64,000 nucleotides of DNA from Nitrospirota bacterium (GTDB lineage Bacteria; Nitrospirota; Thermodesulfovibrionia; Thermodesulfovibrionales; UBA1546), in assembly GCA_016212165.1 (NCBI GenBank), contig JACRGY010000106.1:851-64850 (forward strand). Direction: 5' to 3'. The notes beneath the pieces were generated by a model that saw only the letters and a list, made by a program, of their open reading frames with translations, was not told the DNA's origin and ran no database searches. How positions within the stretch are numbered: the first letter of the stretch is position 1; each line of letters opens with the position of its first letter. The position numbers were made by a program, and so were the translations under genes. This document shows, piece by piece, positions 36,675 through 56,755 of the stretch.

Positions 36675-36684
36675 TTTCCCTCCG

Positions 36685-38165: not shown

Positions 38166-39836
38166 ATGAAGATTCTGAGGCTTGCTCTTGCGCAGATTAA
38201 TCCTACGGTTGGAGATATTGAGGGGAATGTCCTTAAAATCTGTGACTTCATATCAAAAGCAAAGAAACAAAATGCCGGAATAGTTGTATTTCCGGAGCTT
38301 GCCGTGACAGGTTATCCGCCTGAAGACCTTCTGCTGAAGCCGCAGTTTATAAGTGACAATCTTGATGCACTTAAAAAGGTCCAGCGGGAAACAGAAGGTA
38401 TTACCGCAGTTGTTGGTTTTGTTGACCCTGTTAGAAAGCTTAAATCGGATTTTCTTTCTATCGGGGTTGATAAAAAAGACGGCATCTATAATGCTGCGGC
38501 AATATTTCACGACAAGAAACTTGTTGATATTTACCATAAGGTGCATCTTCCAAATTACGGGGTTTTTGATGAATACAGATACTTCAGGGCAGGGACCAAA
38601 TCCCCTGTTTTCACAATTAACGGTATAAGCATGGGAGTCAATATATGCGAGGATATCTGGCATGAGGGGCCGGTTAAATCACAGGCTCAGGCCGGAGTTG
38701 AGATTATTATGAATATTAATGCCTCGCCATATCACATGGGAAAGCTTCATGAGAGAGAGGAGATGCTTTCCAAGAGGGCATCTGACAACAAGGTTTTGGT
38801 CGTGTATCTTAATACTGTCGGCGGCCAGGATGAGCTTGTTTTTGACGGAGGAAGCCTTATTATAGACAGAGCAGGCGAAATTATTGTCAGGGGCAGGCAG
38901 TTTGAAGAAGAGATTATCATTGCAGACGTTCGGATTGACGGCCCATCCCGGCCAGGTAAGAGATATCTTGCGCCAGCGGCCAGTTCATTAGGGGAGGAGG
39001 TTTATAAGGCGCTTGTTTTAGGAACCAGGGACTATGTCAATAAAAATGATTTCAGCAAGGTTGTTATAGGATTAAGCGGAGGGGTTGATTCTTCACTGGT
39101 AGCTGCAATTGCAGTTGATGCAATAGGCAAGAAAAATGTAAAGGGCGTGTTTATGCCGTCTCCATTTACGTCAAAAGAAAGCAGGGAAGATTCCTCTGCG
39201 CTGGCTAAAAATCTTGGGATCAAGATAATTGACGTTCCGATTAATGAAATATTTGAAAGCTATCGTAAGAATTTAAAGAGAGAATTTAAGGGATTCCATG
39301 AAGATATAACTGAAGAGAACCTTCAGGCACGAATCAGGGGCAATATCCTTATGTCATTTTCTAATAAATTCGGATGGCTTGTTTTGACAACAGGGAATAA
39401 ATCCGAGATGAGCGTCGGATATGCTACTCTTTATGGGGACATGGCAGGAGGATTCGCTGTTATAAAGGACGTGCCCAAGACACTTGTATATGAACTCTGC
39501 AAATGGAAGAATTCAAAAGAGGGCAGGGCAGTGATACCGGAAAGGGTATTATGGAAAGAACCTTCGGCAGAGCTTAAACCTGACCAGAAAGACACTGATA
39601 CTCTGCCTCCTTATCCTGTGCTTGACCCGATACTGAAGGCTTACATAGAAGATGACAAGAGCTTTGAAGATATATTGTCTTCAGGCTGTGAAAAAGAATG
39701 CGTGCAGAAGGTTATAAAAATGATTGATAAGAGCGAATATAAGAGAAGACAATCTCCGCCCGGCATAAAGATAACACCAAGGGCCTTTGGTAAAGACAGG
39801 AGATTCCCGATAACAAATAAATACAGGAGTTATTGA
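38166..39836 (+). CDS. nadE: glutamine-dependent NAD+ synthetase
   Basis: 556 aa. N-terminal CN-hydrolase domain plus the PP-loop GLSGGVDSS. Confidence 0.92.
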
Positions 39837-39841
39837 GGTTT

Positions 39842-41170
39842 ATGCAAATACTTATTATTGAAGATGACTCTGCCATACAGCTTGCCCTCAGGGTTTTTTT
39901 TGAGAAAAAAAACTATGAGGTCCTGCTTGCTGATACAGGGGCTAAAGGGTTGGATATCGCCGGGAAGAACCTGCCGGATATAGTCCTCCTCGACCTTCGA
40001 TTGCCTGATATTTATGGCCTGGAACTTCTAAAAAAAATTAAATCTGACCGTCCTGACTCAATGGTTTATATAATGACTGCCTTTGGTGAGGTTAAGGATG
40101 TAATAGACGCTATAAACCTCGGCGCAGAAAATTACTTCCAGAAACCTGTGGACCTCGAAGAATTGGGAGCAATAATTGACAGGAGCTCTGAAAAAATAAA
40201 ATTAAGACAAGAGTTAATGTTATGCAAAAGAGGGCTGTATCCCATTATAGGAAGAAGTAAGGCTGTGCAGGGACTCATTCATCTAATTAATCTTATGGCT
40301 GAAAACCATTCCACTACATTGCTGATACAGGGTGAAACAGGGACAGGCAAAGAACTTGTTGCAAGGAACATCCATTCATTAAGCATGAGGGGAGAAAATC
40401 CGTTTGTAGATATAAACTGTGCCTCTATCCCGGATAATATCCTTGAAAGTGAGATTTTTGGATATGAGGCCGGGGCTTTTACGGATGCAAGGTCGGCAAA
40501 AAAAGGACTTCTTGAGATTGCTGATAAGGGCACCCTGTTTCTTGATGAAATTGCAGAAATGCCCCTTGCCACTCAGGCAAAGTTTTTAAGAGTAATAGAG
40601 ACAAAAACATTCAGGCGGTTGGGTGGCACAAAGGACATAAAAGTTGACATGCGTATTATTGCTGCAACGAATAAAGATCTTGCAAATGCTGTGCATAACA
40701 ATTATTTTCGGGAAGACCTTTATTACAGGCTAAATGTTATGCCTATTACAATCCCTCCCTTAAGGGAACGCATTGAAGATATCCCCTTGCTGGCAGAGTT
40801 CTTCATAACAGAGATTGCAGAAAATATGGCCAAGAAAATAAAGCCGCTTGACAGAGAAGCTGTGGAAGCTCTCTGTTCTTATAGATGGCCGGGCAACATA
40901 AGAGAGTTGCGAAACGTGCTGGAGAGGGCCATGATTCTTTGCCGTGGGGAAGTACTGACAGTCCAGAACCTGGTATTGTCTGCTGGCTCAACCGAAGAAA
41001 ACGCTGCCGCACTTACTCTTAAAGATGTTGAGCGCCTGCATATCAAGGCAATCCTTTCATTGGCTGCCAATAACCGTACAAAGGCTGCAAATATGCTCGG
41101 AATTGCACGTTCAACTCTTAACGAAAAAATTAAAAGTTACAATATTCCCAAGTCCGATCCTGAAATTTGA
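39842..41170 (+). CDS. sigma54-dependent response regulator (REC-AAA+-HTH, NtrC/AtoC family)
   Basis: IIEDD...LLDLRLPD receiver, GETGTGKE, GYEAGAFTDA, C-terminal AANMLGIARSTLNEKIKSY HTH. An alternative TTG start lies at 39833. Confidence 0.9.
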   Translation: MQILIIEDDSAIQLALRVFFEKKNYEVLLADTGAKGLDIAGKNLPDIVLLDLRLPDIYGLELLKKIKSDRPDSMVYIMTAFGEVKDVIDAINLGAENYFQKPVDLEELGAIIDRSSEKIKLRQELMLCKRGLYPIIGRSKAVQGLIHLINLMAENHSTTLLIQGETGTGKELVARNIHSLSMRGENPFVDINCASIPDNILESEIFGYEAGAFTDARSAKKGLLEIADKGTLFLDEIAEMPLATQAKFLRVIETKTFRRLGGTKDIKVDMRIIAATNKDLANAVHNNYFREDLYYRLNVMPITIPPLRERIEDIPLLAEFFITEIAENMAKKIKPLDREAVEALCSYRWPGNIRELRNVLERAMILCRGEVLTVQNLVLSAGSTEENAAALTLKDVERLHIKAILSLAANNRTKAANMLGIARSTLNEKIKSYNIPKSDPEI

Positions 41171-41286
41171 AATTCCCCGGCATTCTTGCGCTATAATTTT
41201 TTATTGATTTTTTCTTTTGGCGTTCTTTATAATTACAATTATAAGATAATTATATAAGCATAGGTTATGGCTCATGGAAAGTAACA

Positions 41287-41691
41287 ATGATTAGCCCGAA
41301 AAAAATTTTGATAGCGGACGATTCAGAATTTGTTCATCACATCTGCAAGGCCAGACTTGCTCGCTGCAAGGATTATGTCTTTCTGAGCGCAAGGAACGGT
41401 CATGATGCATATGAAATTTTATTGAGAGAAGATAAGATTGACCTCATAATTCTGGACCTGAATATGCCTTTAATGAATGGGATAGAGTTTATGGAAAAAA
41501 TGAGAAGAAATCCTTTATACAAACACACCACTGTAATCGTATTAAGCACAGACGGAAATGAAGATAAGCTGAAAATACTGCGTTCTCTCGAAGCATGGGC
41601 CTTTGTTAAAAAATCTCAAGCAGACAATTTTGTTAATATTATCGAAGACGCACTTGCTAAAAAGCCTTCGCCATTATTGAAATTTCATTAA
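41287..41691 (+). CDS. single-domain response regulator (CheY-like)
   Basis: 134 aa. ADDSE and ILDLNMPLMNG. Confidence 0.85.
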   Translation: MISPKKILIADDSEFVHHICKARLARCKDYVFLSARNGHDAYEILLREDKIDLIILDLNMPLMNGIEFMEKMRRNPLYKHTTVIVLSTDGNEDKLKILRSLEAWAFVKKSQADNFVNIIEDALAKKPSPLLKFH

Positions 41692-41784
41692 CCCTGACGC
41701 ATTTTTAAAAATCCATTATTTGAACTAAGAAGTCATCTATTGACCGGATATCGGTCATGCCATCCTATTTTCATACGCTAGAGA

Positions 41785-41873
41785 CTGAGGTTAGAGTTTA
41801 GTTTAAGGTCAATATAATATTGTAAAAACAAAGGATTTATATTCTTAACCTCAGCCTTAACCTTAACCTTGAT
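41785..41873. repeat. inverted arrays of GGTTARR / AACCTTA heptamers
   Basis: CTGAGGTTAGAGTTTAGTTTAAGGTC ... CTTAACCTCAGCCTTAACCTTAACCTTG. Lies immediately upstream of the sigma54 promoter. Confidence 0.75.
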
Positions 41874-41878
41874 ATTAC

Positions 41879-41894
41879 TGGCACTTCTCTTGCA
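41879..41894 (+). promoter_or_regulatory. sigma54 (-24/-12) promoter of the che-type operon
   Basis: TGGCACTTCTCTTGCA, a perfect consensus match, 40 nt upstream of the GTG at 41934. Confidence 0.85.
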
Positions 41895-41933
41895 ATATAT
41901 TGGCGACTGAAATCTTTACCTGGAGGTAATTTT

Positions 41934-42317
41934 GTGAAAAGTATTTTAATAGTTGATGATGAGCCGGCAATATTAATGGCTCTGTCCCATCTTTTAAGCA
42001 ATGAAAACACGCTGGTATTAACAAGCAGCAGAATCGAGGAGGCGGAAGAGGCCCTGGACCGTTACAAATTTGATCTGGTTATTGCAGACATAAGACTAAG
42101 CGGAATAGAAGGGATGGAAGGGCTTGAGCTTCTAAGTTATGTGAAGGGCATAAGCCCTGAAACAAAGGTAATCATTATGACCGCCTATGGTTCTGATGAG
42201 ATAAAAGATTCAGCCTACCAAAGAGGGGCTTACCACTATTACGAAAAACCAATAGACATGGATGACCTGACAAAAAAAGTTGAGGATTGCGGCATCCCTG
42301 TAATGGTTCAAAAATAA
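41934..42317 (+). CDS. single-domain response regulator (GTG start)
   Basis: 127 aa. VDDEP and VIADIRLSG. GGAGG RBS. Confidence 0.85.
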   Translation: MKSILIVDDEPAILMALSHLLSNENTLVLTSSRIEEAEEALDRYKFDLVIADIRLSGIEGMEGLELLSYVKGISPETKVIIMTAYGSDEIKDSAYQRGAYHYYEKPIDMDDLTKKVEDCGIPVMVQK

Positions 42318-42329
42318 AAAGGAGGAGAA

Positions 42330-42752
42330 ATGTCCACCTTAAATTTAAATAAAGTCCTGATTGTAGACGATTCCAAGTTAATACATCAGATGTACAGGCT
42401 GGTTCTGATGAGGTATAAGGGCTGCGCGCTTTTAGATGCAATGAACGGGCTGGAAGCGCTTGATTTTTTATCAAGGGAAAACGGGATTGACCTTATACTT
42501 CTTGACATAAACATGCCTGTAATGAATGGCGTACAATTTATGGAAAAACTCAAAAAGGACAACCTTTACAGGCATATCCCTATAGTTGTTATAAGCACGG
42601 AAGGCAAGGAAGAAGATACCATAAGGGCCATGAAACTAGGAGCCTGGGGCTATATAGTGAAACCCTTTAAATCTGAGGCCCTTTATGAGCTTCTTGAAAA
42701 GGTAATTACTAAAAAATCATCGGCGCTGATGGAAACAGGAACCAGGCGTTAG
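42330..42752 (+). CDS. cheY: chemotaxis-type response regulator CheY
   Basis: 140 aa. VDDSK, LLDINMPVMNG and VKPF. Confidence 0.85.
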   Translation: MSTLNLNKVLIVDDSKLIHQMYRLVLMRYKGCALLDAMNGLEALDFLSRENGIDLILLDINMPVMNGVQFMEKLKKDNLYRHIPIVVISTEGKEEDTIRAMKLGAWGYIVKPFKSEALYELLEKVITKKSSALMETGTRR

Positions 42753-42761
42753 GTTTAAGCC

Positions 42762-44375
42762 ATGGATTACTCTGCTCTTATAAAGGACTATCTTGACGAC
42801 GCGAACGGACATCTGAATGTCTTTGACAGTGCGTTGTTGTCTTTGGAAAAGGGCGGATATAAAAAAGATATACTTATTAATATTCTGGGCGCCCTGCATA
42901 CACTTAAAGGTAATTCCGGCATGATGGGGTTCGAATCTTTAAAGACATACATACATCATGTGGAAGAGATTCTTAAAAAGGTTGACGATAACAGTATAGA
43001 GCTTGGACAGGCGCTAGACACTCTATTAGATAGCGCAAATGTGCTCAGGAATGCGCTGCAGTGGATAGGGAAGAACCCAACCTTTACCCCTGATCTTATG
43101 GAAAACATCCTTGCGCTCCAGAAAAAACTGGAGGGTTCAGGCGATGCTTCTGAAAACCAACGAGTAGACCTTGCATCATACCTGGGCACAAAGACAGATA
43201 CTATTAAGGTCGATTTTAAGCGGCTTGACAGCCTGCTTAATCTTGTTGGAGAACTTGTAATATTCAAAACAAGGCTTAACCAGATAGAGACGCAGGCAAA
43301 AGGCGCAATAAACGACAAGTCTTTCGCTAAAGATTTAAATGAAGGCCTCGAACTTATGGGTAAAACCATATCAGAACTCCAGGAAGGCATAATGAAGGCA
43401 AGGATGCTGCCCGTAAGTTATGTCTTTAATAAATTCCCAAGGATGATAAGAGACCTCGCAAAGTCACAGGGCAAGGAGATTCAACTGATATTTGAGGGTG
43501 AAGACACAGAACTTGACAAGACCGTGATAGACGAACTCGAAGAGCCGCTCCTGCATATAATCAGAAATGCAATAGACCATGGGATAGAGGTTTCTCGCGA
43601 CAGAGTGAATAAGGGAAAGAATCAAAAAGGAACGATTGTCCTGTCTGCCGCCCAGGAATCCAACTATGTAATCATAAAAGTAAAGGATGACGGCAGGGGA
43701 ATTGATTTTGACACGGTAAGAAGGGCAGGCATTGATAAAGGATTAATAAAATCTGAAGACTCCTTTGACAAGGACAACATACTTTCGTTGATTTTTTCTG
43801 CCGGGTTCACGACAAAACAGGAGGCCACGGATGTTTCCGGAAGAGGCATAGGCCTTGATGTTGTAAGCAAAAATATTTCCAAACTAAACGGACATGTTAT
43901 TGTGGAGAGTATTCATGAAAAAGGCACGACTTTCACATTAAAGCTTCCGTTAAATCTTGCGATAATTCCTGCCTTAATGGCAGAGACAGGCGGGGAGGTT
44001 TATGCCATACCAATGAGCGCTATTGACGAGAGTATTAAGGTAAGGGAAGAAGATATTCATATTATAAACAATCACGAAGTAATAAGATTCAGGGAAAGGG
44101 TCATACCAGTCGTCAGGCTTGCTGAATTTTTCGGTCTTAACAGAGAGAAACAGAAGAAATTCTATCTTGTAATAGTTAGCAAGGCGGAAAAACGTATTGC
44201 AATTGCCGTTGACAGGCTCAGGGGACAGCAGGAGATTGTGATTAAACCGCTTGATGATACATTTGGAAAGTCTTATGGCATAGCAGGCGCTTCCATACTC
44301 GGCGATGGAAGGATAGTGCTGATAATTGACGTTATGTCTTTTTATGAGAAAAAGGAGGTGTTGGCAGGTGTCTAA
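42762..44375 (+). CDS. cheA: chemotaxis histidine kinase CheA (Hpt-dimerisation-HATPase-CheW-like; no obvious P2)
   Basis: 537 aa. HTLKGNSG Hpt His, DDGRGID, GRGIGLDVV, and a C-terminal CheW-like domain. Confidence 0.92.
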   Translation: MDYSALIKDYLDDANGHLNVFDSALLSLEKGGYKKDILINILGALHTLKGNSGMMGFESLKTYIHHVEEILKKVDDNSIELGQALDTLLDSANVLRNALQWIGKNPTFTPDLMENILALQKKLEGSGDASENQRVDLASYLGTKTDTIKVDFKRLDSLLNLVGELVIFKTRLNQIETQAKGAINDKSFAKDLNEGLELMGKTISELQEGIMKARMLPVSYVFNKFPRMIRDLAKSQGKEIQLIFEGEDTELDKTVIDELEEPLLHIIRNAIDHGIEVSRDRVNKGKNQKGTIVLSAAQESNYVIIKVKDDGRGIDFDTVRRAGIDKGLIKSEDSFDKDNILSLIFSAGFTTKQEATDVSGRGIGLDVVSKNISKLNGHVIVESIHEKGTTFTLKLPLNLAIIPALMAETGGEVYAIPMSAIDESIKVREEDIHIINNHEVIRFRERVIPVVRLAEFFGLNREKQKKFYLVIVSKAEKRIAIAVDRLRGQQEIVIKPLDDTFGKSYGIAGASILGDGRIVLIIDVMSFYEKKEVLAGV

Positions 44376-44934
44376 GATATCTTTACCGCCTTCAGGCCTT
44401 GCAGAAGATTTTATAGGTGAGATAAGGGATGAACAGGCTGAGGTACAGCTTGTCACCTTTGCCCTTGGGGAACAGTATGGCGTTCCCATAAGCCAGATAC
44501 AGGAAATAATAAGGGTTGGTAATATCACAATGGTTCCAAATTCGCCTTCGTATATGGAAGGAGTTATAAACCTGAGGGGAAGAGTGCTGCCTGTCTTGAA
44601 CCTGAGAAAAAGGTTGCGGCTATCGGCAAAGGACACCGGCAAGATGTCGAGAATTATTGTTACAGAGGTTAACAATAAGACAATAGGATTGCTTGTGGAT
44701 TCAGTCTCGCATGTCATCAAGGTGGCATCGGATTCAGTGGAAGCTGCTCCTGAAGAAGTCCTTGAGATTGACACTGATTACATAACAGGCGTGTGCAAGA
44801 TTCAAGATAGCCTTGTAATATTAATTGACCTGGAAAAACTCTTAAAGAGAGAAAAGATTGAGATTAAAGAGGTTGGGATGGATTTATCTACGGCCCATGA
44901 ACAACGAGGAGGAAGCGATGGAAAAGAAAATTAA
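44368..44934 (+). CDS. cheW: coupling protein CheW (GTG start)
   Basis: GTG lies 8 nt after AAGGAGGTG and overlaps the cheA stop. LVTFALGEQYGVPISQIQEI and INLRGRVLPVLNLR. Confidence 0.88.
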   Translation: MSKISLPPSGLAEDFIGEIRDEQAEVQLVTFALGEQYGVPISQIQEIIRVGNITMVPNSPSYMEGVINLRGRVLPVLNLRKRLRLSAKDTGKMSRIIVTEVNNKTIGLLVDSVSHVIKVASDSVEAAPEEVLEIDTDYITGVCKIQDSLVILIDLEKLLKREKIEIKEVGMDLSTAHEQRGGSDGKEN

Positions 44935-45127
44935 CTGCTGGGAGTTTAAAAAATGCGGAAGGGATAAGACAGGAGACTGTCCGGCATATCCGAAAGGCGG
45001 AAGGGTGTGCTATTTGGTTGCAGGCACTTTGTGCGGGGGAAAGGTGCAGGGAACATATGCCCTTAAGATTGATAACTGCCGGTCATGTGATTTTTATAAG
45101 GGAGTGGTCATCGAAAAAAAATTTTGA
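44918..45127 (+). CDS. free-standing 7-Cys module protein ('two-CW'-like), copy B
   Basis: 69 aa. MEKKINCWEFKKCGRDKTGDCPAYPKGGRVCYLVAGTLCGGKVQGTYALKIDNCRSCDFY. GGAGGAAG RBS. Start overlaps cheW by 17 nt. Confidence 0.85.
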   Translation: MEKKINCWEFKKCGRDKTGDCPAYPKGGRVCYLVAGTLCGGKVQGTYALKIDNCRSCDFYKGVVIEKKF

Positions 45128-45193
45128 AAGAAAAGAGGCTATGATTTTTAAATTTTTTAACCTTAGTCTTAATCTATGTTTAAGGAGGAAAGC

Positions 45194-47680
45194 GTGAAGA
45201 TAAAAATCAGCACAAAACTTTTTATTGGTTTAGGGGTTATACTTGCCATTGTAATTGCAATGGCAGCCGGATTTTATTTGTCCATGAAAAATGTGGAAGA
45301 GGCAAAGTCAGAGGCCCTTCAGCTGTCAGAGCTGAACACATTTTTCTCGGAGCGAGTGGTGGACCATCTTAAATGGATGGACGGACTTTCTTCGGGTCTC
45401 TTTATTGAGGGGAAGGAATTCAAGGGAAAGCTTGATCCCGCTGAATGTAACCTTGGAAAATGGATGACGACATTTAAACCCTATTCAAAGGAGATAGAAG
45501 AGCCTTTTAAAGCATTAGATGCGCCCCACAAAAAACTACATGAATCGGCAAGCCGAATAATTTCAGAAACCAAAGCGGGGCACAAGGACAGGGCTCATGC
45601 AATATTTATAGCGGAGACAATTCCTGCAGTTGCATCTGTCCAGGGAAGCCTGAATAAGATGAAGGAAATCCTGAAAAAGGACATGGAAACAAAAGACATA
45701 CAATTGAAGGCTGCCATTAAAAGAGCTAATGCCATTACGTTCGGGCTTGCTGCGTTTGTATTGCTGTTTGGCATTATCGGAGGCACAATTTTTGTAAAGG
45801 GCATAAGTAACGGGATTACAGGGCCTATCGAAAAGATGATAAATTCAATGAAGAGGATTGCTGACGGGAACCTTACTGAAGAAGTGGCTGTTAAGGGCAG
45901 TGATGAGATAGTTCAGATGTCCGGAGAGTTCAATAAGGTTGTTAAGGGGCTTAAGGATACAATTACACACGCTGTCGCATCTGCCCTTAAGGTTTCCCTG
46001 GCTACAAATAATATAGTTTCAAACGCGCAGAAACTTTCCTTATCCTCACAGGAAGAAGCCTCTGCCACAGAAGAGACTACTTCTTCCATGGAGGAGATGG
46101 CAGCATCTATAGCACAGGTTGCAAAGAATACGGAGTCGCTTGCGACAAATGTTGATGAAACATCAGCTACAATAGGCGAGATGGCTGCCTCGATAGAGCA
46201 GGTAGGAAAAAGCGCTGACAACATGGCAGCTTCGGTTGAAGAAACATCCGCAACAATTGAAGAGATGCTTGCCTCTACCGACCAGACTGCAAAAAATACA
46301 GGTATGATGACCGAGGCAGTAAGCGAAACATCCCTGACTGTTGAAAATCTGCTCTCATCAATCGAGCAGATATCTAAAAATACAGAATCCTTAAAAAATA
46401 TGGTCACGGAGACTTCAAGCACCATTGAAGAGATGACAATGACTGTCAGAGAGGTTGCGGGAAGGATTGAGGGCGCCAATAAATTAACCCAGAAAGCTTT
46501 CGGTGAGGCCGAAGACGGCGGAAAGGCCATATACCAGAGCATAGAAAGCCTCCAGAATATCGGCAAAACAACAGAAAAAACCATGGGCATAATACAAAAC
46601 CTGGGCAAACGCTCGGAAGAAATAGGCTCGATTGTTGAAGTCATAGATGAGATTGCAGACCAGACAAACCTTCTGGCGCTTAACGCCGCAATAGAGGCAG
46701 CGCGGGCAGGGGATGCCGGAAGGGGCTTTGCCGTAGTTGCAGAGGAAATACGAAAGCTTGCAGAGCGTTCCATGGAGGCTACAAAAGAGATTGGGGGCGT
46801 TATAAAACAGGTACAGAGCGAAACTGAAACAGCGATAAAGGCAACAGAAGAAACTTACAGGGAAGGCAAGGGCGGTATTATGCTTGCGGGGCAGAGCAGG
46901 GATGCATTCACAGAAATAATAGCTTCAATAAAAGAAAGTTCGGAAGTAATGCATGGGATAGCCAAGTCTGCAGCTGAACTGAACAAGGCGATTGAGCAGA
47001 GCATGAAATATGTTGTGGATATGAATGCGTCTACTGATGATGTTACAAGCGCTGTAAAAGGGCAGGCGAATGGCGCAGGCAGCATCAGGCTTCTCCTTGA
47101 TAAGATGAACAAAATGGTACAGGAAGTAAATATAGCAGCCAGAGAACAATCCATTGGCGGAAAACAGATACGAGAGGCTGTAGAGCGCATGAAAAATATA
47201 GTCCATGAGGTAGGGGTTGCCGTTAAAGAGCAGGTGAGCGGGACCAAGCAGATAGTTCAATCAGCTGAGATAATGCATGAAATGGCACAGTCGGTAGCTA
47301 ATGCAACATCAGAACAGAAACTCGGAGGAGAGACTGTTGTGAGAGCAATGGAGGGCATAGGGCATATTGCATCAGAAAACCTTGAGCTGTCGAAGAAAAT
47401 GACCGAGACGTCCAATGAAACACTTTTCCAGATGGAAAACCTCCAATATGTAATAAGCAACTTTAAGATACATTCAAATGGAAATAAAAAATGCTGGGAT
47501 GTAATGAACTGTCCAGCAGGGTCAAGGCTTAAATGCCCTGCATATAATGCCCAGGAAGACCGGTGCTGGCTTATATCGGGAACGTGGTGCAAGGGCGCGC
47601 AGCAGGGTGACGCGCGGTCTAAATTGCGTAACTGCATGACCTGTGAGGCATTCAAGGTTATACAGGGAGTGGAAGTGTAA
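45194..47680 (+). CDS. methyl-accepting chemotaxis protein: CZB-like sensor between 2 TM, HAMP, long MA domain, C-terminal 7-Cys module (copy C)
   Basis: GTG follows AAGGAGG. HLKW...CNLGKW...H..LH zinc-binding-type motif at aa 60-125. Signalling hairpin [18 protein letters not shown]. Four EETS(A/S)..EEM..S repeats. Last 60 aa: [35 protein letters not shown]...CMTCEAF. Confidence 0.9.
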
Positions 47681-47770
47681 TTCAAAATTCAAAATGGTAA
47701 ATGGGTGAATAGGTTAAAAGGTGAATGGGTTTTTGCGATTTACCGATTCACCGAATAGCAATTCACCTGT
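47681..47770. repeat. inverted arrays of GGTGAAT / GATTCAC heptamers
   Basis: AATTCAAAATTCAAAATGGTAAATGGGTGAATAGG..GGTGAATGGG ... CGATTTACCGATTCACCGAATAGCAATTCACC. Shares CGATTCAC with the nifN-internal repeat. Confidence 0.75.
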
Positions 47771-47783
47771 AAGGGAAAATGAT

Positions 47784-48917
47784 ATGCAGGAAATCCAGGA
47801 AATATTAAATAAATTAAAGGACAATAACTGGTGGGTAAGAAAAAACACCATTGAAAATCTTCTTGCCTATCCCGAAGATTCGTACCTTTCTGTCCTGGAG
47901 GAATGGCTGAGAAATGGTGACGACGCCCTCTTAAGGAATGCTGCCATGGAGGCATTCAGGTCTCTTGGAGGAAGGGCTGTCGGGTCCCTTATTTCATTGC
48001 TTAAAGACAAGGATCCGGATGTCAGGATTTTTGCCGCAAATGTGCTTGGAGATATAGGAGACGCAGAAGCATTGTCAGCGCTTATACCGGCGCTTGCTGA
48101 CCCTGATGTTAATGTTAAAATAGCATCAGCTGAAGCGCTCGGCAAAATAGGCAGCGAAAAGGCGGTAACGGCATTGGCAAAACTCATAGGCAGCACAACA
48201 TGGGTCACGATGGCAGCTATTGAGGCTATTGGTGAGATAGGCGGCGATAAAGCCTTAACTGTGCTTTATAAGTGCCTTGAAAAAGAAGAATATCACGGCA
48301 TGGCATTTGCTGCAATTGAAAGGGCAGGGAACCAGCATTTCATAAGACATTTAACGCCATTTGTTGATAAGGAAACCGGCCTCAGGGAACTGGCGCTGAA
48401 GGCAATAGTTACTATTGCCGACAGAGAGGGAACAAAGCCAATGCCTTCATATTTCACAAGCCTTATTCCCCTGCTTCTGGACCTGCAGCATTCTGCCCGG
48501 CCCGAATTCAAAAAGGCCGCCTTTATAGCATTGTGCTGGTCGGAAGACATGAGTGGTTTTGAATATTTCATTGATGCCCTGAACGATGAAGAGCTTCAGG
48601 AATATGCCATAAACGGATTGTTTTCGCTCGGGAAAAGGGCAGTTCCCGGCATAATTGACGCTCTTAAAAAACAGGGCGCCAACAGGGTTATTCTGGCAAA
48701 GGTTCTCTCCATGCTTGGAGAAAATACCGCTCTGCTGCGGTTTGCGGATGATGATGATGCAGAGGTCCGCACAGAGGTTGCTCTTGCCATTGGCAACTTG
48801 AAAACTCAGAAAGCCATTGAAACGCTGCTGATGCTTGAACAGGATGCCATAGACGAGGTTAGGGCAGCAGCTCAGCTTTCGTTAAAGAATAAAAAGGACA
48901 CCGGTAATCTAACATGA
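47784..48917 (+). CDS. HEAT-repeat (PBS-lyase-like) protein
   Basis: About 10 repeats of the type D.D..VR..AA.ALG.IG...A...L. The ATG at 47784 is chosen because upstream codons lie in the heptamer repeat. Confidence 0.85.
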   Translation: MQEIQEILNKLKDNNWWVRKNTIENLLAYPEDSYLSVLEEWLRNGDDALLRNAAMEAFRSLGGRAVGSLISLLKDKDPDVRIFAANVLGDIGDAEALSALIPALADPDVNVKIASAEALGKIGSEKAVTALAKLIGSTTWVTMAAIEAIGEIGGDKALTVLYKCLEKEEYHGMAFAAIERAGNQHFIRHLTPFVDKETGLRELALKAIVTIADREGTKPMPSYFTSLIPLLLDLQHSARPEFKKAAFIALCWSEDMSGFEYFIDALNDEELQEYAINGLFSLGKRAVPGIIDALKKQGANRVILAKVLSMLGENTALLRFADDDDAEVRTEVALAIGNLKTQKAIETLLMLEQDAIDEVRAAAQLSLKNKKDTGNLT

Positions 48918-49762
48918 CATTGTCTAAAAAAGATCTGATGTCAGAAGAGGAATTTGCTCTTCTGAGGGATCTGATAAATAGAGAGTTTGGGATACAATTA
49001 AGAGGTGACAAGAGGCTGACTTTTCATACAAAAGTATCTCACAGGCTGAATATCCTTGGCCTCAAATCCTACAGGGATTACTATGAGTTTATTATTTCAG
49101 ATTCTTCAAGAGAAGAATTGTTTAGGCTTGCCTCTCACATAACAAATAACGAAACCTATTTTTTCAGGGAAAAAATGCAGCTCGATGTATTTTCTAATCT
49201 GCTTAAGGAGATTAAAAAAGAGAGACAGAAAAAGAACCAGAATATTTTAAAAATCCTGTCTCTTGCCTGTTCAAGCGGAGAAGAGGCATATACCCTGAAT
49301 ATCCTGGCCCAGGAAAGCGGGCTTTTTATCTGGGACTGGGATATAAGGATAATAGGCATTGATATAGACAAAAATGCGCTTAAAAAGGCAAAAGGGGCTT
49401 CCTATACAAAGAACTCATTCAGGCTGAACGGGAATATAGACATTGTTAATAAATATTTCACAGCCGAAGGAGACCATTACAGCTTAAGAAAAATTTTTAC
49501 AAAAAATGTTGATTTCAGGCATGGGAACCTGCTGGACATCAATTCTTTCACTGACATCAATGATATAGATGTTGTCTTTTGCAGGAACGTGCTGATATAC
49601 ATGAATGACAGCGCTATCAGCAGGATTATAAAAAATCTTTATAACAGCATGACAGATTCAGGGTATCTTTTTATAGGTTCGGCAGAGAGCCTTATTCAAC
49701 GCACAGACCTTTTTTCCCCGGAATATAATAATGGAATAATTGTTTACAGAAAGAATGTCTGA
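48914..49762 (+). CDS. cheR: chemotaxis protein methyltransferase CheR
   Basis: 282 aa. TYFFRE, and the SAM-binding LSLACSSGEEAYTL and VFCRNVLIY. Confidence 0.9.
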   Translation: MTLSKKDLMSEEEFALLRDLINREFGIQLRGDKRLTFHTKVSHRLNILGLKSYRDYYEFIISDSSREELFRLASHITNNETYFFREKMQLDVFSNLLKEIKKERQKKNQNILKILSLACSSGEEAYTLNILAQESGLFIWDWDIRIIGIDIDKNALKKAKGASYTKNSFRLNGNIDIVNKYFTAEGDHYSLRKIFTKNVDFRHGNLLDINSFTDINDIDVVFCRNVLIYMNDSAISRIIKNLYNSMTDSGYLFIGSAESLIQRTDLFSPEYNNGIIVYRKNV

Positions 49763-50768
49763 AATCAGGGTCCTCATAGTAGACGATTCTCCGTTTATCC
49801 GAAAAGCGCTTCTCAGGATTTTTGAATCTGAACCTTCGATTGCAGTTGTGGGTGTTGCCAGGAACGGGAAAGAGGCCATAGGAAAGGTTATAGAGCTGGA
49901 GCCTGATGTTATAACCCTTGATATAATGATGCCGGAGATGGATGGCATCGAGACTCTTAAGATTATAATGGAGACAAAACCTACCCCTGTGCTGATGCTT
50001 TCCCAGTATACCCATGAAGGCACAGAACTCACCTTAAATGCCCTTGAATTTGGGGCCATGGATTTTGTCGATAAATCAACAACCGGATTGATGGATTTTT
50101 TTGGGCTTGCTAAAGAAATAATATCAAAAGTTAAGGCTATAACAGGCCAAAGACCATTAAGGATTGCTTCTTCATCAATGGCGCTTCAGGACTATAAAGG
50201 CAGGGGCATTATAGATGCAGTTGCAATTGGAACTTCAACAGGAGGGCCGCCTGCACTCCAGGTGCTTTTGCCAAAATTTCCCAAGGATATAAGCTTTGGA
50301 GTTCTCATAGTCCAGCATATGCCGCAGGGCTTTACAGGGCCGCTCGCTAAACGGCTCGATACTATGTGTCAAATCCATATTAAAGAGGCAGAGGAGGGGG
50401 ACAAGATTGAACCCGGCGTTGCCCTTATTGCGCCTTCAGGCCTCCATATGAAGGTCAGGAAAAATCAAAAACTTATAAGGCTCGACATGGAACCTATAAA
50501 CACAGCCCACAGGCCATCTGTGGATGTGCTTTTTCAGACAGTGGCAGACAACTATGGTAATCGTTCAATCGGTGTAATTCTCACAGGCATGGGGTCTGAC
50601 GGGGCAAAAGGCATAAGGCTGATGAAAGAGCAGGGCGCTGTTACCCTTGCTCAGGATGAGGAAACATCAACGATATTCGGAATGCCAAAGGTTGCGATAG
50701 AAAGCGGGGTTATTGATAAGGTAGTGCCCATAACCTCAATGGCAGAAGAGATAATGAAGATGGCATAA
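49755..50768 (+). CDS. cheB: protein-glutamate methylesterase CheB
   Basis: REC (VDDSPFIR, TLDIMMPEMDG) plus an esterase domain (GTSTGGPPAL, HMP, GMGSDGA). Confidence 0.9.
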   Translation: MSEIRVLIVDDSPFIRKALLRIFESEPSIAVVGVARNGKEAIGKVIELEPDVITLDIMMPEMDGIETLKIIMETKPTPVLMLSQYTHEGTELTLNALEFGAMDFVDKSTTGLMDFFGLAKEIISKVKAITGQRPLRIASSSMALQDYKGRGIIDAVAIGTSTGGPPALQVLLPKFPKDISFGVLIVQHMPQGFTGPLAKRLDTMCQIHIKEAEEGDKIEPGVALIAPSGLHMKVRKNQKLIRLDMEPINTAHRPSVDVLFQTVADNYGNRSIGVILTGMGSDGAKGIRLMKEQGAVTLAQDEETSTIFGMPKVAIESGVIDKVVPITSMAEEIMKMA

Positions 50769-50769
50769 G

Positions 50770-50826
50770 GAGGTAAAGGTAAAGAGATGCTAAAGAGTTT
50801 TCTCAACCTCAACCTTAACCTCAGCC
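50770..50826. repeat. inverted heptamer repeat between convergent cheB and the kinase gene (bidirectional terminator-like)
   Basis: GGAGGTAAAGGTAAAGAG ... CTCAACCTCAACCTTAACCTCAGCC. AACCTTA family. Confidence 0.6.
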
Positions 50827-53673
50827 TTCTTGAAGACTAATTATTACTGACGTCCCTGAACCTTCGGTACTCTGTATCTCCATGCTGCCGTTATGGTCTT
50901 CGATTATTTTTTTGCATATTGAAAGGCCAAGCCCCGTGCCTTCTTTTCTTGTTGTAAAAAACGGGTCCCATATCTTGTCTATTATATCTTTTCTGATCCC
51001 AATGCCATTGTCCTTTGTCGTTATTACCACCCTGCCTTTTTTCTGCTCAGCAGTTATATCTACGTTCCTGCTCCGTGCATTCAGGGCATTATCTATAAGG
51101 TTCAGGAAAACCTGGGTCAGTTTATCTGTATCTGCCATGATTGTAACTGAAGGGTTAATTATTAAATTCACGGCCACATCCTCTTTCTTTGCCTTAACAT
51201 AATGCTTTATCTTTTCCATAAGGACATTTAAATCCACTTCTCTGATATCCAATTTTGACGGCCTGCTGTACAGGAGAAGTTCCTCAATCAGGTTCTTCAG
51301 TCTGTATATCTCCTTAAGCATTGCCTGCAGAAGGGCACGGTGTTGTTCGGATTTAATTTCCCTCTCTAATATCTGCACTATGGAGGATATGCCAAAAAGC
51401 GGATTCCTTATTTCGTGGGCAACCCCGGCAACAACCTTTCCTATTGCCTCAAGATGCTGCCTCTTCCTTGCTTCTGCCTGAAGTTTCTTTATCTCGGTAA
51501 GATCACGGAATACCACAACAGTTCCTGCCTGTTTATCATCCGTACGGCTCAACGGAGAATTGTTGAAACCTACAGGAATGACATCTGTCCCGTCTGAGAG
51601 CTCTATCTCTCTGTTCAGGTTAGAATTAATTATGAGAAAATCAGATGCCTGCGGCAAGGCGTCTGTAAGTTTTTTACCGATAACATAGTCTTTGATTTTC
51701 AATATCCCGAAACCGATAGGGTTTAACTTTATGATACGGTTTTCCGAATCAAGAACCATTATTCCCGTGGCCATGTTGGTGAGAACCACCCCTGAAAAAT
51801 CCCTTTCAGTTAGGAGCTCATTGTATAGCTGTGCTGTATTAATGGCAGCGGCAGCCTGGCTTGCAAAGAGCCGAATAACAGCCTTTTCAGCATCTGTCAT
51901 AAAGAAATCTTTTTTCTTGAAAAGTGTCAGGCAACCGAATATTGAATTTTTCAGCTTCAACGGGACTGAGGCCATGTACAAAAAACCATAGCTTTGGATT
52001 AAACCGCTGAGACATTCAACATCCTGAATTCTAACTGTTTCCAAGGGGCGTTCCTCCTCAATGGATCTTCCGATAAAAGATTCTTCAACGGGAAGAGAAT
52101 CAGGGATGATAGCTTTTTCAATATTGGAGACGGTTTTGAGGTGCAATCTTCCGTCTTTTTTCCCCATTAGCCACAGTATTGCGGCGTCCATATTTGCAAA
52201 AACCGTAGCAGATGAGACAATGGATTGCGTAAGTTTATTCAGGTCCAGGTCCCGAATCGTTTCAACTGATATATCCTGAAGCCTGATAAGGCTGGCTATG
52301 TCTTCTTTTTTTCCCTCAATCAGCTTTTGGTTTTCAATGGCAGATGCAATTTCAGAGCCAAGAATTTCAATGGAATGAAGCGAAGTCTTTGTTATATCTT
52401 CTGTTTTGCCGGCTATTAAAACTCCTATAACAGGGAAGACATTACAGTGAAGACACCCGTAGATTTTTTCTTTGCCGGCCACTGCCTGAGGGCTTCTGCA
52501 GAGCGTGCCGCTTATCAGCCAGCACCTCTCGTCAGTACTATTAAATGCAGGGCAGTTTTCGTATGTGCAGAGATTGACTTCCCTGCATCTCTTCCTTTGA
52601 TGAGAAAGAATAGGAATTATAACGACGTTGCCAAATGCATCCGGCGCCCCAATATCCTGCGACTTTTTTATCGCGGACCTTGCTTCCCTTATGGTTTTTA
52701 TAAAGGGGTGTTCGCTGGCAAGTGATATTTCAATAGAGCAGACATCATCATCAATGCCTTTTTTGAACTCCTGCAAAAGAAGTCCTGTTTCCTTGTCTAT
52801 AAGGCATAGGGCCGAATATCCATAGCCCATCTCGTCTGTTATGGCATCCAAAAACTGCCCTACAATCTCTTTCAGTGTTAGATCGCCTTTAAATACCTCA
52901 GATGAAAGTTCAGCAATTGCCCTTAGCTCTTTAGTCCTTTGCCTTATGGCGTTCTCAAGGCCTATATGTGATTTCTCTATGCTGTCTGCCATTTCATTAA
53001 AGCGGGAAGCAAGCATGCCAATCTCATCATTCCTCTTTAAGTGTATTCTGTATTTAAGCTTTCGGGGCCTCAGCACGTCTGTTCCTTGATGGAGGGTATC
53101 CAGGGGATTTAGAATCATCTTTCTTATAACAATGATTAAAAATATTTCACTGATTAAACCTATGATAACGGCAAAAAATATCAGGCGCTTGGCTGTTTCG
53201 TTAATCTCTGCATGAGCCTTTCTCAGTGAGGTTTTTATAACAAGCATCCCCCTTGTCTTATCCCCGGAGGAATGACAAGCATGGCACCTGCGCTCATTTT
53301 TAAGAGGCTTATAGAAAAAGAGGGCCTCGTCGGATTTTATATGGGCTTCCTTCCGGGCAGCGAATATTTCTTCAGGCACCGCAATATCAGTGTTAAAAAC
53401 CGGCTGCCCGTCCATGCCTACGACCCCTATTTCCACATCCCCAAGCTGACGGAACTCCTGAATATGCTGAGCAACAATCAGAGGATCTTTTTCCATCATT
53501 GCAGATGTGAGATGTTTTGTAAGCATTTCTGCAGTCTGTAAAGATTTCTCCGAATATATGCCGATTATTATGGTTTTTTCCCGTTCGAGTATCAGGTATG
53601 TGAGAAGTCCAAAAAAGAAGACTACGCCGGCCAGGAGTATCCAGAAAGATTTTTCACTAAGACTTTTTTTGAT
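50821..53673 (-). CDS. sensor histidine kinase: TM, periplasmic CxxCH domain, TM, HAMP, GAF (with inserted 7-Cys module, copy D), GAF, PAS, HisKA, HATPase
   Basis: The track ORF starts at the ATG at 53526. However, 49 in-frame stop-free codons upstream encode IKKSLSEKSFWILLAGVVFFFGLLTYLIL (TM1) after the AAGGGGAAGGG RBS, which implies an ATC (or other non-canonical) start at 53673. CHACH lies at 53272-53286. H-box AHEIRNPL. DNGIGI/GTGLGLSI. Confidence 0.85.
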   Translation of the reverse strand: MKKSLSEKSFWILLAGVVFFFGLLTYLILEREKTIIIGIYSEKSLQTAEMLTKHLTSAMMEKDPLIVAQHIQEFRQLGDVEIGVVGMDGQPVFNTDIAVPEEIFAARKEAHIKSDEALFFYKPLKNERRCHACHSSGDKTRGMLVIKTSLRKAHAEINETAKRLIFFAVIIGLISEIFLIIVIRKMILNPLDTLHQGTDVLRPRKLKYRIHLKRNDEIGMLASRFNEMADSIEKSHIGLENAIRQRTKELRAIAELSSEVFKGDLTLKEIVGQFLDAITDEMGYGYSALCLIDKETGLLLQEFKKGIDDDVCSIEISLASEHPFIKTIREARSAIKKSQDIGAPDAFGNVVIIPILSHQRKRCREVNLCTYENCPAFNSTDERCWLISGTLCRSPQAVAGKEKIYGCLHCNVFPVIGVLIAGKTEDITKTSLHSIEILGSEIASAIENQKLIEGKKEDIASLIRLQDISVETIRDLDLNKLTQSIVSSATVFANMDAAILWLMGKKDGRLHLKTVSNIEKAIIPDSLPVEESFIGRSIEEERPLETVRIQDVECLSGLIQSYGFLYMASVPLKLKNSIFGCLTLFKKKDFFMTDAEKAVIRLFASQAAAAINTAQLYNELLTERDFSGVVLTNMATGIMVLDSENRIIKLNPIGFGILKIKDYVIGKKLTDALPQASDFLIINSNLNREIELSDGTDVIPVGFNNSPLSRTDDKQAGTVVVFRDLTEIKKLQAEARKRQHLEAIGKVVAGVAHEIRNPLFGISSIVQILEREIKSEQHRALLQAMLKEIYRLKNLIEELLLYSRPSKLDIREVDLNVLMEKIKHYVKAKKEDVAVNLIINPSVTIMADTDKLTQVFLNLIDNALNARSRNVDITAEQKKGRVVITTKDNGIGIRKDIIDKIWDPFFTTRKEGTGLGLSICKKIIEDHNGSMEIQSTEGSGTSVIISLQEG

Positions 53674-55266: not shown

Positions 55267-56064
55267 TTACTTGGGCGTAAAGGTAATAGTGCCGGAAGAC
55301 TCATTTATGGAATAATCAAAATGTTTCAGGAAGGAACCACCGAGAAGGTTATGAACATTCGAAGGAGAGTTACCACACTTAACATCTTTCACTTCAAAAG
55401 AACCAAGCCGAAGAGAGGAAACATAAAAATAGTTAACCTTGACATCTCCATTTGCAGTATGATGAACGCCAGTTCCAACAAATTCTTTAACACCTAACTT
55501 CCGAATAGCATCAGAATTTAAAGCGACGTAAGAAGCTCCGGTATCAAGAATCACTTCAAAAGGCATACCGTTTATTTCAACATCAAGGTGCTTAACATTA
55601 TTGACAGAACGATATTTAAAAGTTTGAGACATAACAGCAGGTTCATATACACTATGACGCTTACCGTTAATTTCTACATATCCACTATAACCACCGCCAA
55701 CAGTAGATACAAGCTGAGATTTTTCTTTTTCTGATTGCTGAGAAATTAACAAAGCCTGTTTTTCCATCTGCGTCCTAATAGGAGAATTTTCAAGACAACT
55801 ACTACTTGATGGATTAGCCGCACACATTTCTTCATAAGTCTTGTAATACACAGATTGAACCGGAACAGATTGAATAGGAACAGATTGAACAAACGGAGAA
55901 GATTGAGCAGGAGCATAGACAACAGGAGGGCGAGAAAAATATAAGTTTACACGATATAAAAAAACACCAATAATAAAGACCCAAGAAACCCAACCAAAAA
56001 GTCTCAGATAATAATTAAACCCTTTTGATTTACAAGGAAGATTATCCCAACGTTCAAGAGCCAT
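55267..56064 (-). CDS. membrane-anchored retropepsin-like (clan AA) aspartic protease
   Basis: 265 aa. N-terminal TM. VQSVPIQSVPVQSV repeat. Catalytic LDTGAS and LLGGSFL (TIGR02281-like). Confidence 0.8.
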   Translation of the reverse strand: MALERWDNLPCKSKGFNYYLRLFGWVSWVFIIGVFLYRVNLYFSRPPVVYAPAQSSPFVQSVPIQSVPVQSVYYKTYEEMCAANPSSSSCLENSPIRTQMEKQALLISQQSEKEKSQLVSTVGGGYSGYVEINGKRHSVYEPAVMSQTFKYRSVNNVKHLDVEINGMPFEVILDTGASYVALNSDAIRKLGVKEFVGTGVHHTANGDVKVNYFYVSSLRLGSFEVKDVKCGNSPSNVHNLLGGSFLKHFDYSINESSGTITFTPK

Positions 56065-56501: not shown

Positions 56502-56549
56502 AATTCCTTTTTAACTCCCTCAGTCAGTGAAGGAAGTTAAAAAGGAATT
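56502..56549. repeat. 48-bp inverted repeat (candidate phage origin or operator)
   Basis: AATTCCTTTTTAACT(cCCT)-cagtcagtga-(AGGa)AGTTAAAAAGGAATT. 15 perfect plus 3 further base pairs. Confidence 0.7.
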
Positions 56550-56592
56550 TTGTTTTTAGAGAGAAAAATATAAAAAGAAGGGAGGTGAAAAA

Positions 56593-56739: not shown

Positions 56740-56755
56740 GGAGAGAAAAAAAAGT

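Follow-up and report, generated by a model that had tools for sequence, protein, structure and literature searches.

In a 64,000-nucleotide stretch of contig JACRGY010000106.1 from a Nitrospirota bacterium (the whole of which is called the window here), a chemosensory operon lies together with the gene of a sigma54-dependent activator and a convergent sensor kinase gene, and a small module with seven cysteines recurs in this region as a free protein, at the C-terminus of a methyl-accepting chemotaxis protein (MCP) and inside the kinase. On the evidence of profile matches the module is the two-CW domain (NCBIfam NF045718), a label without an assigned function that a preliminary description of this DNA had already mentioned. 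The gene order proposed in that description was confirmed by Pfam and comprises activator, lone receiver (REC), promoter, REC, CheY, CheA, CheW, a 69-amino-acid protein, MCP, HEAT-repeat protein, CheR, CheB and the convergent kinase. This locus forms a signalling island complete in itself, which relatives from Thermodesulfovibrionales have kept, and it can be treated as a unit because its flanks differ among these relatives.

Six-frame translation of the window yields four matches to the module core, C[WYF]x[ILV][AS]G[TS]xC, compared with none in 200 shuffles, and these are the four Cys-rich copies that had been noticed at the outset, each with exactly seven Cys. Two of them are free proteins encoded on the plus strand: a 106-amino-acid protein of a long-loop subtype (33668-33988), which matches the full NF045718 profile with 114.6 bits, and the 69-amino-acid protein of the operon (44918-45127, 69.9 bits). 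The third copy makes up the last 62 residues of the MCP (residues 773-834; 47492-47677, plus strand; 38.7 bits over residues 771-830), and the fourth is embedded in the kinase (52429-52587, minus strand; residues 314-366 counted from ATG 53526). Three of the four copies, that is, both free proteins and the MCP copy, pass the curated 35-bit cut-off of NF045718 (two_CW_domain), whereas the kinase insert, with 27.2 bits over profile positions 17-75 only and all seven Cys kept, is by its score a divergent relative of the two-CW domain and no formal member of NF045718. All four fit the pattern C-x5-C-xn-CP-xn-C-x7-C-x14-C-x2-C, with spacings of 5, 4-14, 9-20, 7, 14 and 2 residues; the earlier hand alignment had the pattern right and erred in two distances, which are x4..14 instead of x4..13 and a uniform x14 instead of x12..14. 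The Cys-Trp dipeptides for which the domain is labelled vary between copies (CW and CW in the 106-amino-acid protein and the MCP, CW and CY in the 69-amino-acid protein, CR and CW in the kinase). Pairwise identity amounts to 60% between the two free proteins, 43% between the MCP and kinase copies and 27-37% between free and fused copies, and as judged from these sequences the four are old paralogues.

The gene of the 106-amino-acid protein is joined through an ATGA overlap of its stop codon to the start of a single-domain response-regulator receiver gene (33985-34356, plus strand; PF00072, 73.9 bits), in keeping with the translational coupling proposed earlier. A molybdate/tungstate-type ATP-binding cassette (ABC) transporter (ATPase, permease and binding protein) and a ModE-like regulator, recognized by eye from the translations, are encoded on the minus strand at 34379-37098 and adjoin this two-CW/receiver pair (33668-34356). 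The start of the 69-amino-acid open reading frame (ORF) overlaps the 3' end of cheW, as had been claimed, by 17 nucleotides (nt), and the ORF has a GGAGGA ribosome-binding site of its own. An exact-sequence look-up returned no record for this protein, and likewise none for the protein P0325.

Upstream of the operon, an NtrC/AtoC-type sigma54 activator with receiver, AAA+ and helix-turn-helix domains (39833-41170; Pfam Response_reg, Sigma54_activat, AAA_lid_14 and HTH_8; possible alternative start at ATG 39842) is AtoC-like with 399 bits, below the equivalog cut-off. It is followed by the lone CheY-like receiver (41287-41691; PF00072, 71.9 bits), which synteny maps show to be absent from all orthologous clusters; judged by eye, it seems to have arisen in this window only, by duplication of the CheY gene at 42330-42752. 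The operon itself, on the plus strand like the two preceding genes, opens with a single-domain receiver with a GTG start (41934-42317; PF00072, 86.1 bits), whose closest matches are NtrC-type receivers (best NCBIfam match, the ntrC receiver), and a CheY-like receiver (42330-42752; PF00072, 97 bits; CheY PRK10610, 70 bits, below its cut-off). Next come CheA (42762-44375), with Hpt, dimerisation, HATPase and CheW domains and no P2 domain detected by Pfam, and CheW (44326-44934; PF01584, 134 bits), whose start codon is uncertain: the listed ORF overlaps the 3' end of cheA, and the CheW domain is found from residue 41 onwards.

Behind the 69-amino-acid protein, the MCP (45176-47680) consists of a transmembrane segment (TM1), a periplasmic CZB-like segment, a second transmembrane segment (TM2), HAMP, a long signalling domain and the C-terminal two-CW module (Pfam MCPsignal, HAMP and CZB). 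Most CZB domains are cytoplasmic; the Pfam CZB match of this MCP, at residues 64-129 (45365-45562), lies between the two TM segments and is predicted to be periplasmic. The signalling region (45980-47480) extends over about 500 residues, is internally repetitive with multiple partial MCPsignal matches, and is far longer than that of the standard 36H-44H receptor classes. A HEAT-repeat protein that is conserved in the orthologous clusters (47721-48917; PF13646, 142.5 bits), the CheR methyltransferase (48914-49762; PF01739 and PF03705) and CheB with REC and methylesterase domains (49740-50768; PF01339 and PF00072) complete the operon.

A sigma54 promoter of the -24/-12 type, TGGCACTTCTCTTGCA, is located at 41879-41894 on the plus strand, 40 nt ahead of the GTG codon with which the operon's first gene starts, and is a perfect match to TGGCAC-N5-TTGCA, as reported in the preliminary description; 0.048 exact consensus matches are expected per window, and two were seen. 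The element TGGCA[CT]-N5-TTGC is also conserved in relatives (positions -53 to -64 relative to the first REC domain match; -64 in the window) in otherwise diverged flanks, and each of the seven orthologous loci with sequence at this position has kept it (L003, L004, L005, L006, L008, L009 and L011). This comparison shows that a conserved, predicted sigma54 promoter drives the che operon, i.e., that the operon has a sigma54 input. Inverted repeats are present upstream of it at 41782-41869 (TGAGGTTA ... TAACCTCA), and two inverted-repeat pairs, AGACTGAGGTTA / TAACCTCAGCCT and AGTTTAAGGTCAA / TTAACCTTAACCT, lie 10-100 nt upstream of the promoter. They are candidate activator-binding sites, for which no claim is made here; in L003, the one orthologue used for comparison, the upstream sequence does not show the same repeats. 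Scans for sigma70 promoters and terminators gave the same counts as shuffles.

The convergent sensor kinase (50821-53673, minus strand) contains TM1, a c-haem PAS-like sensor, TM2, HAMP, a GAF-like domain with the two-CW insert, GAF, PAS, HisKA and HATPase domains. It is AtoS-like (284 bits, below the equivalog cut-off), and it plausibly forms a cognate pair with the AtoC/NtrC-like activator. The first canonical ATG is found at 53526; the frame is open upstream of it (53526-53673) and encodes a TM helix, and the only plausible in-frame start in this part is an ATC at 53673, which is preceded by a ribosome-binding site, GGGGAAGGG. A start there would give a product of 950 amino acids, compared with 947-955 in orthologues, and only with this start is TM1 included, the topology then being TM1, periplasmic domain, TM2 and HAMP. 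The kinase thus most likely starts at ATC 53673, where either a sequencing error or the use of a non-canonical codon would have to be assumed. Its periplasmic domain (53200-53526, residues 1-110) matches PF21563 with 33.7 bits against a cut-off of 27 bits and is homologous to PDB 3B47/3B42 (E = 1e-6 for 3B47), with RCHACH aligned to RCQSCH, a CxxCH c-haem motif. These two structures we take to be the Geobacter MCP c-haem PAS sensors GSU0582/GSU0935 (PMC3460858).

The proposal that the two-CW module has been spliced into the first GAF domain of the kinase is likely to be correct, on alignment evidence that stays below threshold. After deletion of the 55-residue insert, GAF_2 aligns over its full length (profile positions 2-136, E = 7e-5), which agrees with the earlier claim, at 23.4 bits, which does not reach the gathering cut-off of 28.6 bits; with the insert in place, only a C-terminal piece (profile positions 102-136) aligns. 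A comparison by hhalign of the spliced first GAF domain with the bona fide second one gave E = 0.18, and an AlphaFold (AF2) model of the first GAF domain with its insert, built from only five homologues, reached a mean predicted local distance difference test score (pLDDT) of 36.8, too low for the model to be used. The insert is kept at the same site in five orthologous kinases, and this GAF-embedded form of two-CW appears from the sequences to be restricted to this clade.

Among the related loci, L001/L008 has the same order from activator to kinase as the window except for a swap of CheR and the HEAT-repeat protein, and the che operon carries a free two-CW gene in the same slot in L003-L011. 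All three forms of the module (free, MCP-fused and kinase-embedded) are present in L005, L008, L009 and L010, and in at least six genomes the activator, che operon and kinase have stayed linked.

The two-CW family extends far beyond this clade. Homologues among GenBank proteins from metagenome-assembled genomes (MAGs) already bear the name two-CW, and the family comprises 2,130 clusters at 90% identity and 2,474 representatives at 50% identity, with at least 570 two-CW loci among GTDB species representatives. Bacterial hosts include Nitrospirota, Desulfobacterota, Verrucomicrobiota, Planctomycetota, Ignavibacteriales, Zixibacteria, Acidobacteriota, Actinomycetota and Melainabacteria, and archaeal hosts include Methanoperedens and Methanospirillum. 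Almost all of the sequences come from MAGs of groundwater, sediment, peat and similar habitats, and anoxic lineages, such as Thermodesulfovibrionales, syntrophs, Methanoperedens and Methanospirillum, prevail overwhelmingly among the hosts. The 106-amino-acid subtype is itself a conserved family of proteins of about 100 amino acids (517 matches at E<=1e-10), whose members, where named, all belong to Nitrospirota/Thermodesulfovibrionales with the exception of one from Ammonifex.

Conservation of the cysteines among homologues, which had been named as a check on the initial idea, proved to be 97-99% for all seven positions in 288 domain instances. In the same alignment, W8 (98%), Glu/Asp9 (95%), T37 (97%), P22, A23, G28, G36, G41, G45 and K50 are further conserved positions, Cys3 is followed by Pro, Cys2 and Cys5 are followed by Gly, a conserved His is absent, and there is only one CxxC. 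The first CW position is Trp in 98% of cases, and the second is Trp in 55%, Ala in 28% and Tyr in 14% across the family; the second CW is therefore, by sequence, not really a defining feature of the two-CW family. At default thresholds Pfam has no family for the module, ten diverse members gave no recurrent Pfam match at E<=10, and a profile search of PDB sequences gave no match at E<=10. The AF2 model of the module (pLDDT 79) consists of four short helices, and Foldseek found no match to it in PDB. In these Pfam, PDB-sequence and Foldseek comparisons, neither a known iron-sulfur (Fe-S) motif nor homology to an Fe-S family was detected for two-CW, which weakens the idea that it is a member of a known Fe-S family and not the idea that it binds Fe-S; nor did two-CW show the paired CxxC/CxxH knuckles of zinc fingers or homology to any of their families. 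The literature library that was searched held no paper on the two-CW domain. Free two-CW proteins start right at the motif without a signal peptide, and fused copies sit after HAMP or signalling domains, because of which the domain is predicted to be cytoplasmic.

The fusion partners of the domain were surveyed in the best 148 representatives, 75 of which have at most 130 amino acids and 54 of which have at least 200 amino acids and are counted as multidomain. Partners in these 54 are MCPsignal (22 proteins), HATPase_c (11), HisKA (8), GGDEF (6), HAMP (6), REC (5), CZB (5) and PAS, with single cases of EAL, HD-GYP, Ser/Thr kinase, PP2C, cyclic-nucleotide-binding and hemerythrin domains, and all 25 partner families listed are signal-transduction or sensor domains. 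The module is C-terminal in 20 of 22 MCPs and N-terminal, central or C-terminal in kinases. Tandem copies occur in 19 of the 148 proteins, and minimal MCPs (P0161 and P0216) and kinases (P0263, P0130 and P0258) have two-CW as their sole non-transmitter domain. The N-terminal motif of the domain, N-C-W-E-F (33680-33694, 44933-44947 and family-wide), resembles NWETF, the pentapeptide by which E. coli receptors tether CheR and CheB at their C-terminus. The domain is usually C-terminal in MCPs, as NWETF is in those receptors, and the resemblance is probably a coincidence.

The survey of gene neighbourhoods drew on the 80 loci with the highest similarity to the query, and the statistics refer to 49 stand-alone copies from beyond the close clade; signalling ORFs were called with hidden Markov models (HMMs) made from the window's own proteins, among which GGDEF was not included. 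At a gap of less than 500 bp from free copies, there are 4.65 signalling ORFs per 10 kb, compared with 0.9, 0.76 and 0.45 further out (binomial p = 2.9e-11), i.e., a 5-10-fold enrichment of directly abutting signalling genes over more distant positions. When neighbours were binned by domain midpoint, the enrichment was only about 2-fold, and binning by intergenic gap showed that the signal is confined mainly to abutting genes. A signalling gene abuts the free copy in 17 of the 49 stand-alone loci, nearly always on the same strand, and such neighbours include sigma54 activators upstream and hybrid kinases downstream. Recurrent arrangements are a REC-sigma54 activator, two-CW and a hybrid kinase in other Nitrospirota, and an MCP with two-CW followed by a free two-CW gene in archaea (L058 and L078). 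Neighbourhoods of the 106-amino-acid subtype vary: L083 has none, L084 has another two-CW gene in tandem, and in L085 an activator and a haem-sensor kinase are encoded upstream and a REC-HD-GYP protein downstream. Unbiased clustering of neighbouring ORFs revealed no other recurrent partner; the largest cluster of apparently conserved neighbours (25 loci) was discarded as an artefact, being the antisense frame of the two-CW gene itself. Through fusion or a shared operon, this cytoplasmic domain with seven cysteines is nearly always linked to signalling transmitters. The Rosetta-stone argument made in the preliminary description, by which the module would serve signal input, is now well supported family-wide at the level of sequence, because the fusion partners are nearly all signalling domains and abutting signalling genes are enriched.

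Based on these observations, we propose that two-CW acts as a cofactor-binding cytoplasmic sensory or regulatory module in an island that joins a sigma54-driven che operon to a kinase/activator pair, a reading to which we give about an even chance. The seven Cys, probably together with the Glu/Asp two residues after Cys1, would ligate one or more metal cofactors, most likely one or two Fe-S clusters, whose redox or occupancy state would alter the conformation or the pairing of the domain. The altered domain could then bias the transmitter to which it is attached: from the C-terminus of the receptor it would act on the MCP/CheA array, and from within the GAF domain on the kinase. The free 69-amino-acid protein, made together with CheW, might act in trans on the array, possibly by pairing with the fused copies, because tandem copies and the pairs of free and fused genes in archaea point to pairing. 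In addition, the kinase would read the periplasm through its c-haem domain and phosphorylate the sigma54 activator, which would switch on the che operon, and the Che module would add adaptation through CheR/CheB and signal to the CheY-type receivers, possibly also back to the activator as in Che3/CrdSA. Cofactor identity, sensing role, phosphorylation partners and output are what we infer in this scheme.

As for the cofactor, Fe-S is favoured over zinc, though not decisively, because a conserved His is absent, only one CxxC is present, and Pro after Cys3 and Gly after Cys2 and Cys5 are kept; the extreme conservation of a 60-residue domain, as seen in small ferredoxins, and the mostly anoxic host lineages lead to the same preference. 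FNR, NreB-PAS, WhiB-like proteins and NsrR are cytoplasmic Cys-ligated Fe-S sensors that convey oxygen, nitric oxide (NO) or redox signals to transcription or kinase activity with three to four Cys, and some Fe-S sensors use three Cys and an Asp ligand. The likeness to two-CW is one of concept only, in that ligation by three Cys and Asp is comparable with seven Cys and Glu/Asp, whereas no similarity of sequence, motif or fold was detected. CZB (PF13682; TlpD-type MCPs and DgcZ) is another small cytoplasmic metal-thiolate sensor, typically found at the C-terminus of MCPs and also on GGDEF proteins. It shares the range of architectures with two-CW and is carried by 5 of the 54 multidomain two-CW proteins; however, CZB is a four-helix bundle with three His and one Cys, whereas two-CW has seven Cys, lacks a conserved His and shows no detectable relationship to CZB in sequence. 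A bolder version of the proposal, which we hold only tentatively and consider doubtful, is that two-CW would represent a new class of Fe-S sensor (seven Cys, possibly with Glu/Asp, e.g., with a double or another non-canonical cluster) that serves anaerobes as a universal cytoplasmic redox, oxygen or NO input, with the free proteins as diffusible co-sensors that pair with fused copies.

Several other explanations of the module have to be weighed against this proposal. A chance or low-complexity Cys pattern, or small ORFs that are not real genes, might be suspected from the sizes of the free proteins (69 and 106 amino acids) and from the overlap of one of them with cheW; the absence of the core motif from 200 shuffles compared with four matches in the window, curated HMM scores of up to 114.6 bits, homologues in the thousands with invariant Cys, and the conserved operon position and own ribosome-binding site of the 69-amino-acid ORF leave this a negligible probability, and chance or artefact was ruled out as the source of the module on the basis of shuffles, HMM scores, homologue numbers and Cys conservation. 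A more substantial rival, although an unlikely one, is that two-CW is a structural two-zinc mini-domain, folded by its seven Cys and Glu/Asp in the manner of LIM, RING or PHD domains, and serves without any sensing as a homotypic docking handle that joins the free protein, the MCP and the kinase. The ligand count of the two-zinc RING, PHD and LIM domains, seven Cys and one other, speaks for this, as do the presence of the module in three proteins of one cluster, the tandem copies, the pairs of free and MCP-fused genes in the distant archaea L058 and L078, and the usual C-terminal site in MCPs and kinases, which would suit a tether. However, only one CxxC knuckle and no conserved His are present, there is no similarity to Pfam or PDB zinc-finger families, two-CW is the sole candidate input in minimal MCPs and kinases, a bias towards anoxic lineages is unexpected for a purely structural zinc domain, and fusion to GGDEF, EAL, HD-GYP, PP2C and Ser/Thr-kinase outputs is what is classically seen with input domains. 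It is still less probable that two-CW is a metal-free thiol/disulfide switch, in which oxidants or electrophiles would cause intradomain disulfides and thereby signal to the transmitter. Seven invariant cytoplasmic Cys in organisms of anoxic habitats are compatible with such a switch, and their odd number would leave one reactive thiol, but the invariance over bacteria and archaea of all seven together with nearby Gly, Pro and Thr is more typical of cofactor ligation, and disulfide switches usually need only two to four Cys.

The proposal of a cofactor-binding sensor also has findings of its own to contend with. The Cys spacing of two-CW matches no known Fe-S or zinc motif, the domain has no relative in Pfam, PDB sequences or Foldseek, its model is only moderately confident (pLDDT 79), and the Fe-S or other metal cofactor is a proposal drawn from sequence. 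Classical input domains do not typically follow the HATPase or MCP signalling domain on its C-terminal side, and such a site would also fit a docking or regulatory role. The neighbourhood survey is biased and incomplete, being built on similar loci and window-derived HMMs, and 32 of the 49 stand-alone copies (about two thirds) have no abutting signalling gene; the free copy of L083, for instance, lies between selB and selA. In the kinase copy of L010 (10096-10260), Cys5 is lost (TLRRS for TLCRS) and CA replaces CP after Cys3, which hints that the embedded two-CW copy can degenerate. Moreover, the sigma54-contact loop of the activator (40440-40460, residues ~205-217) reads GAFTDA instead of the canonical GAFTGA; GAFTDA is kept in all orthologous clusters (L004-L011), and the NifA-like activator of the window has GSFTGA. 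All of these points weigh against our interpretation.

The circuit itself, consisting of chemosensory, two-component and sigma54 elements, is a variant of known designs and unremarkable as such, so that the earlier impression of an undescribed combination with a Che pathway did not hold: both sigma54-controlled che operons (PMC2577667) and Che3/CrdSA (PMC3147164) were already known. In Che3 of Myxococcus xanthus, a che cluster, an NtrC-type activator and an NtrB-family kinase jointly set the phosphorylation state of the activator (PMC3147164). Here too, a che core (MCP, CheA, CheW, CheR and CheB) is linked to an NtrC-type activator and a partner kinase, which makes Che3 the closest system-level analogue by gene content and linkage. 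Che3 has no CheY, whereas the operon of the window contains two single-domain receivers (41934-42317 and 42330-42752), both kept in orthologues, with a lone one besides in the window; the locus is therefore not assigned to the Che3/CrdSA type and is Che3-like at most in part. It also differs from Che3 in that the che operon itself stands behind a sigma54 promoter and that two-CW does not figure in the description of Che3. In Geobacter, sigma54 promoters were predicted for che clusters, and R. sphaeroides is cited in that work as a documented case (PMC2577667). The window shares with Geobacter predicted sigma54 promoters before che operons, and the periplasmic domain of the kinase is homologous to 3B47, but the haem sensor is carried here by a histidine kinase rather than an MCP, and the same kinase has the two-CW insert in its cytoplasmic part. 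The word 'cysteine' does not occur in the text of the Geobacter paper, and an association of '40+24H' MCPs and HEAT-repeat genes with Geobacter che clusters could not be confirmed in the same paper (PMC2577667) and was dropped.

As regards the output of the pathway, the preliminary description had favoured sigma54 transcription over motility, which goes beyond the data: they give a sigma54 input to the operon only, the operon encodes two CheY-type receivers, and a single 64-kb window is weak ground for such a choice. The alternative, that this is an ordinary flagellar chemotaxis pathway that needs sigma54 for its expression, with the activator and kinase controlling expression only and not being targets of CheA, is a serious possibility, if one of somewhat less than even probability. 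The two single-domain CheY-type receivers and the full CheR/CheB adaptation set in the operon are what would be expected from it, sigma54-dependent che operons have been documented or predicted in motile bacteria (PMC2577667), and the window covers 64 kb of the genome. It is opposed by the lack of any flagellar or pilus gene among the scanned ORFs of the window (several ORFs being without a Pfam match or unscanned), by the way in which activator, che operon and kinase have stayed tightly linked in at least six genomes, an arrangement that resembles Che3/CrdSA, whose output is an NtrC homologue, and by a CheA without a detectable P2 (CheY-docking) domain.

Elsewhere in the window, a nitrogen-fixation island lies between positions 4522 and 26577. 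It contains a NifA-like GAF-sigma54 activator (4522-6054), three Amt genes (9695-11344, 23214-24566 and 25270-26577), nifH (11864-12751), nifD (12814-14241), nifK (14214-15752), TauE (15884-16624), a nifEN fusion (16641-19235), a nifX-like gene (19219-19635), P-II (20054-20473) and a radical-SAM nifB-like gene (21206-22090), which has a perfect sigma54 promoter upstream (21158-21173). A relaxed sigma54 site is found at 11865 by nifH, and the sites at nifH and the nifB-like gene serve as an internal control, which indicates that the organism uses canonical sigma54 promoters. In addition, a Zot-family ATPase (57713-58801, minus strand; PF05707) is encoded among small ORFs in a stretch of low GC content (56000-62000; 36-40% compared with about 44% elsewhere), and this region may be an integrated filamentous, inovirus-like prophage.

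The new element of this locus is thus a widespread sensor-type domain that has been catalogued but remains uncharacterised. The signals of most bacterial and archaeal receptors are unknown, and strict anaerobes have very few characterised cytoplasmic sensor domains; here, a domain with seven cysteines is found in at least 2,400 sequence clusters from many phyla, including methanogen and anaerobic methanotroph (ANME)-type archaea, and is plugged into every major class of signalling output. The survey also provides targets for experiments, namely the 69-amino-acid protein and the minimal MCPs and kinases with two-CW as their only candidate input. If the domain binds Fe-S or another redox cofactor, a new sensor family would be defined, by which sulfate reducers, syntrophs and methane-cycling archaea would link behaviour and gene expression to the redox or metal status inside their cells; and if the Fe-S sensor reading is true, it would provide inputs to chemotaxis, two-component, cyclic di-GMP and Ser/Thr-phosphorylation signalling in anaerobic bacteria and archaea.

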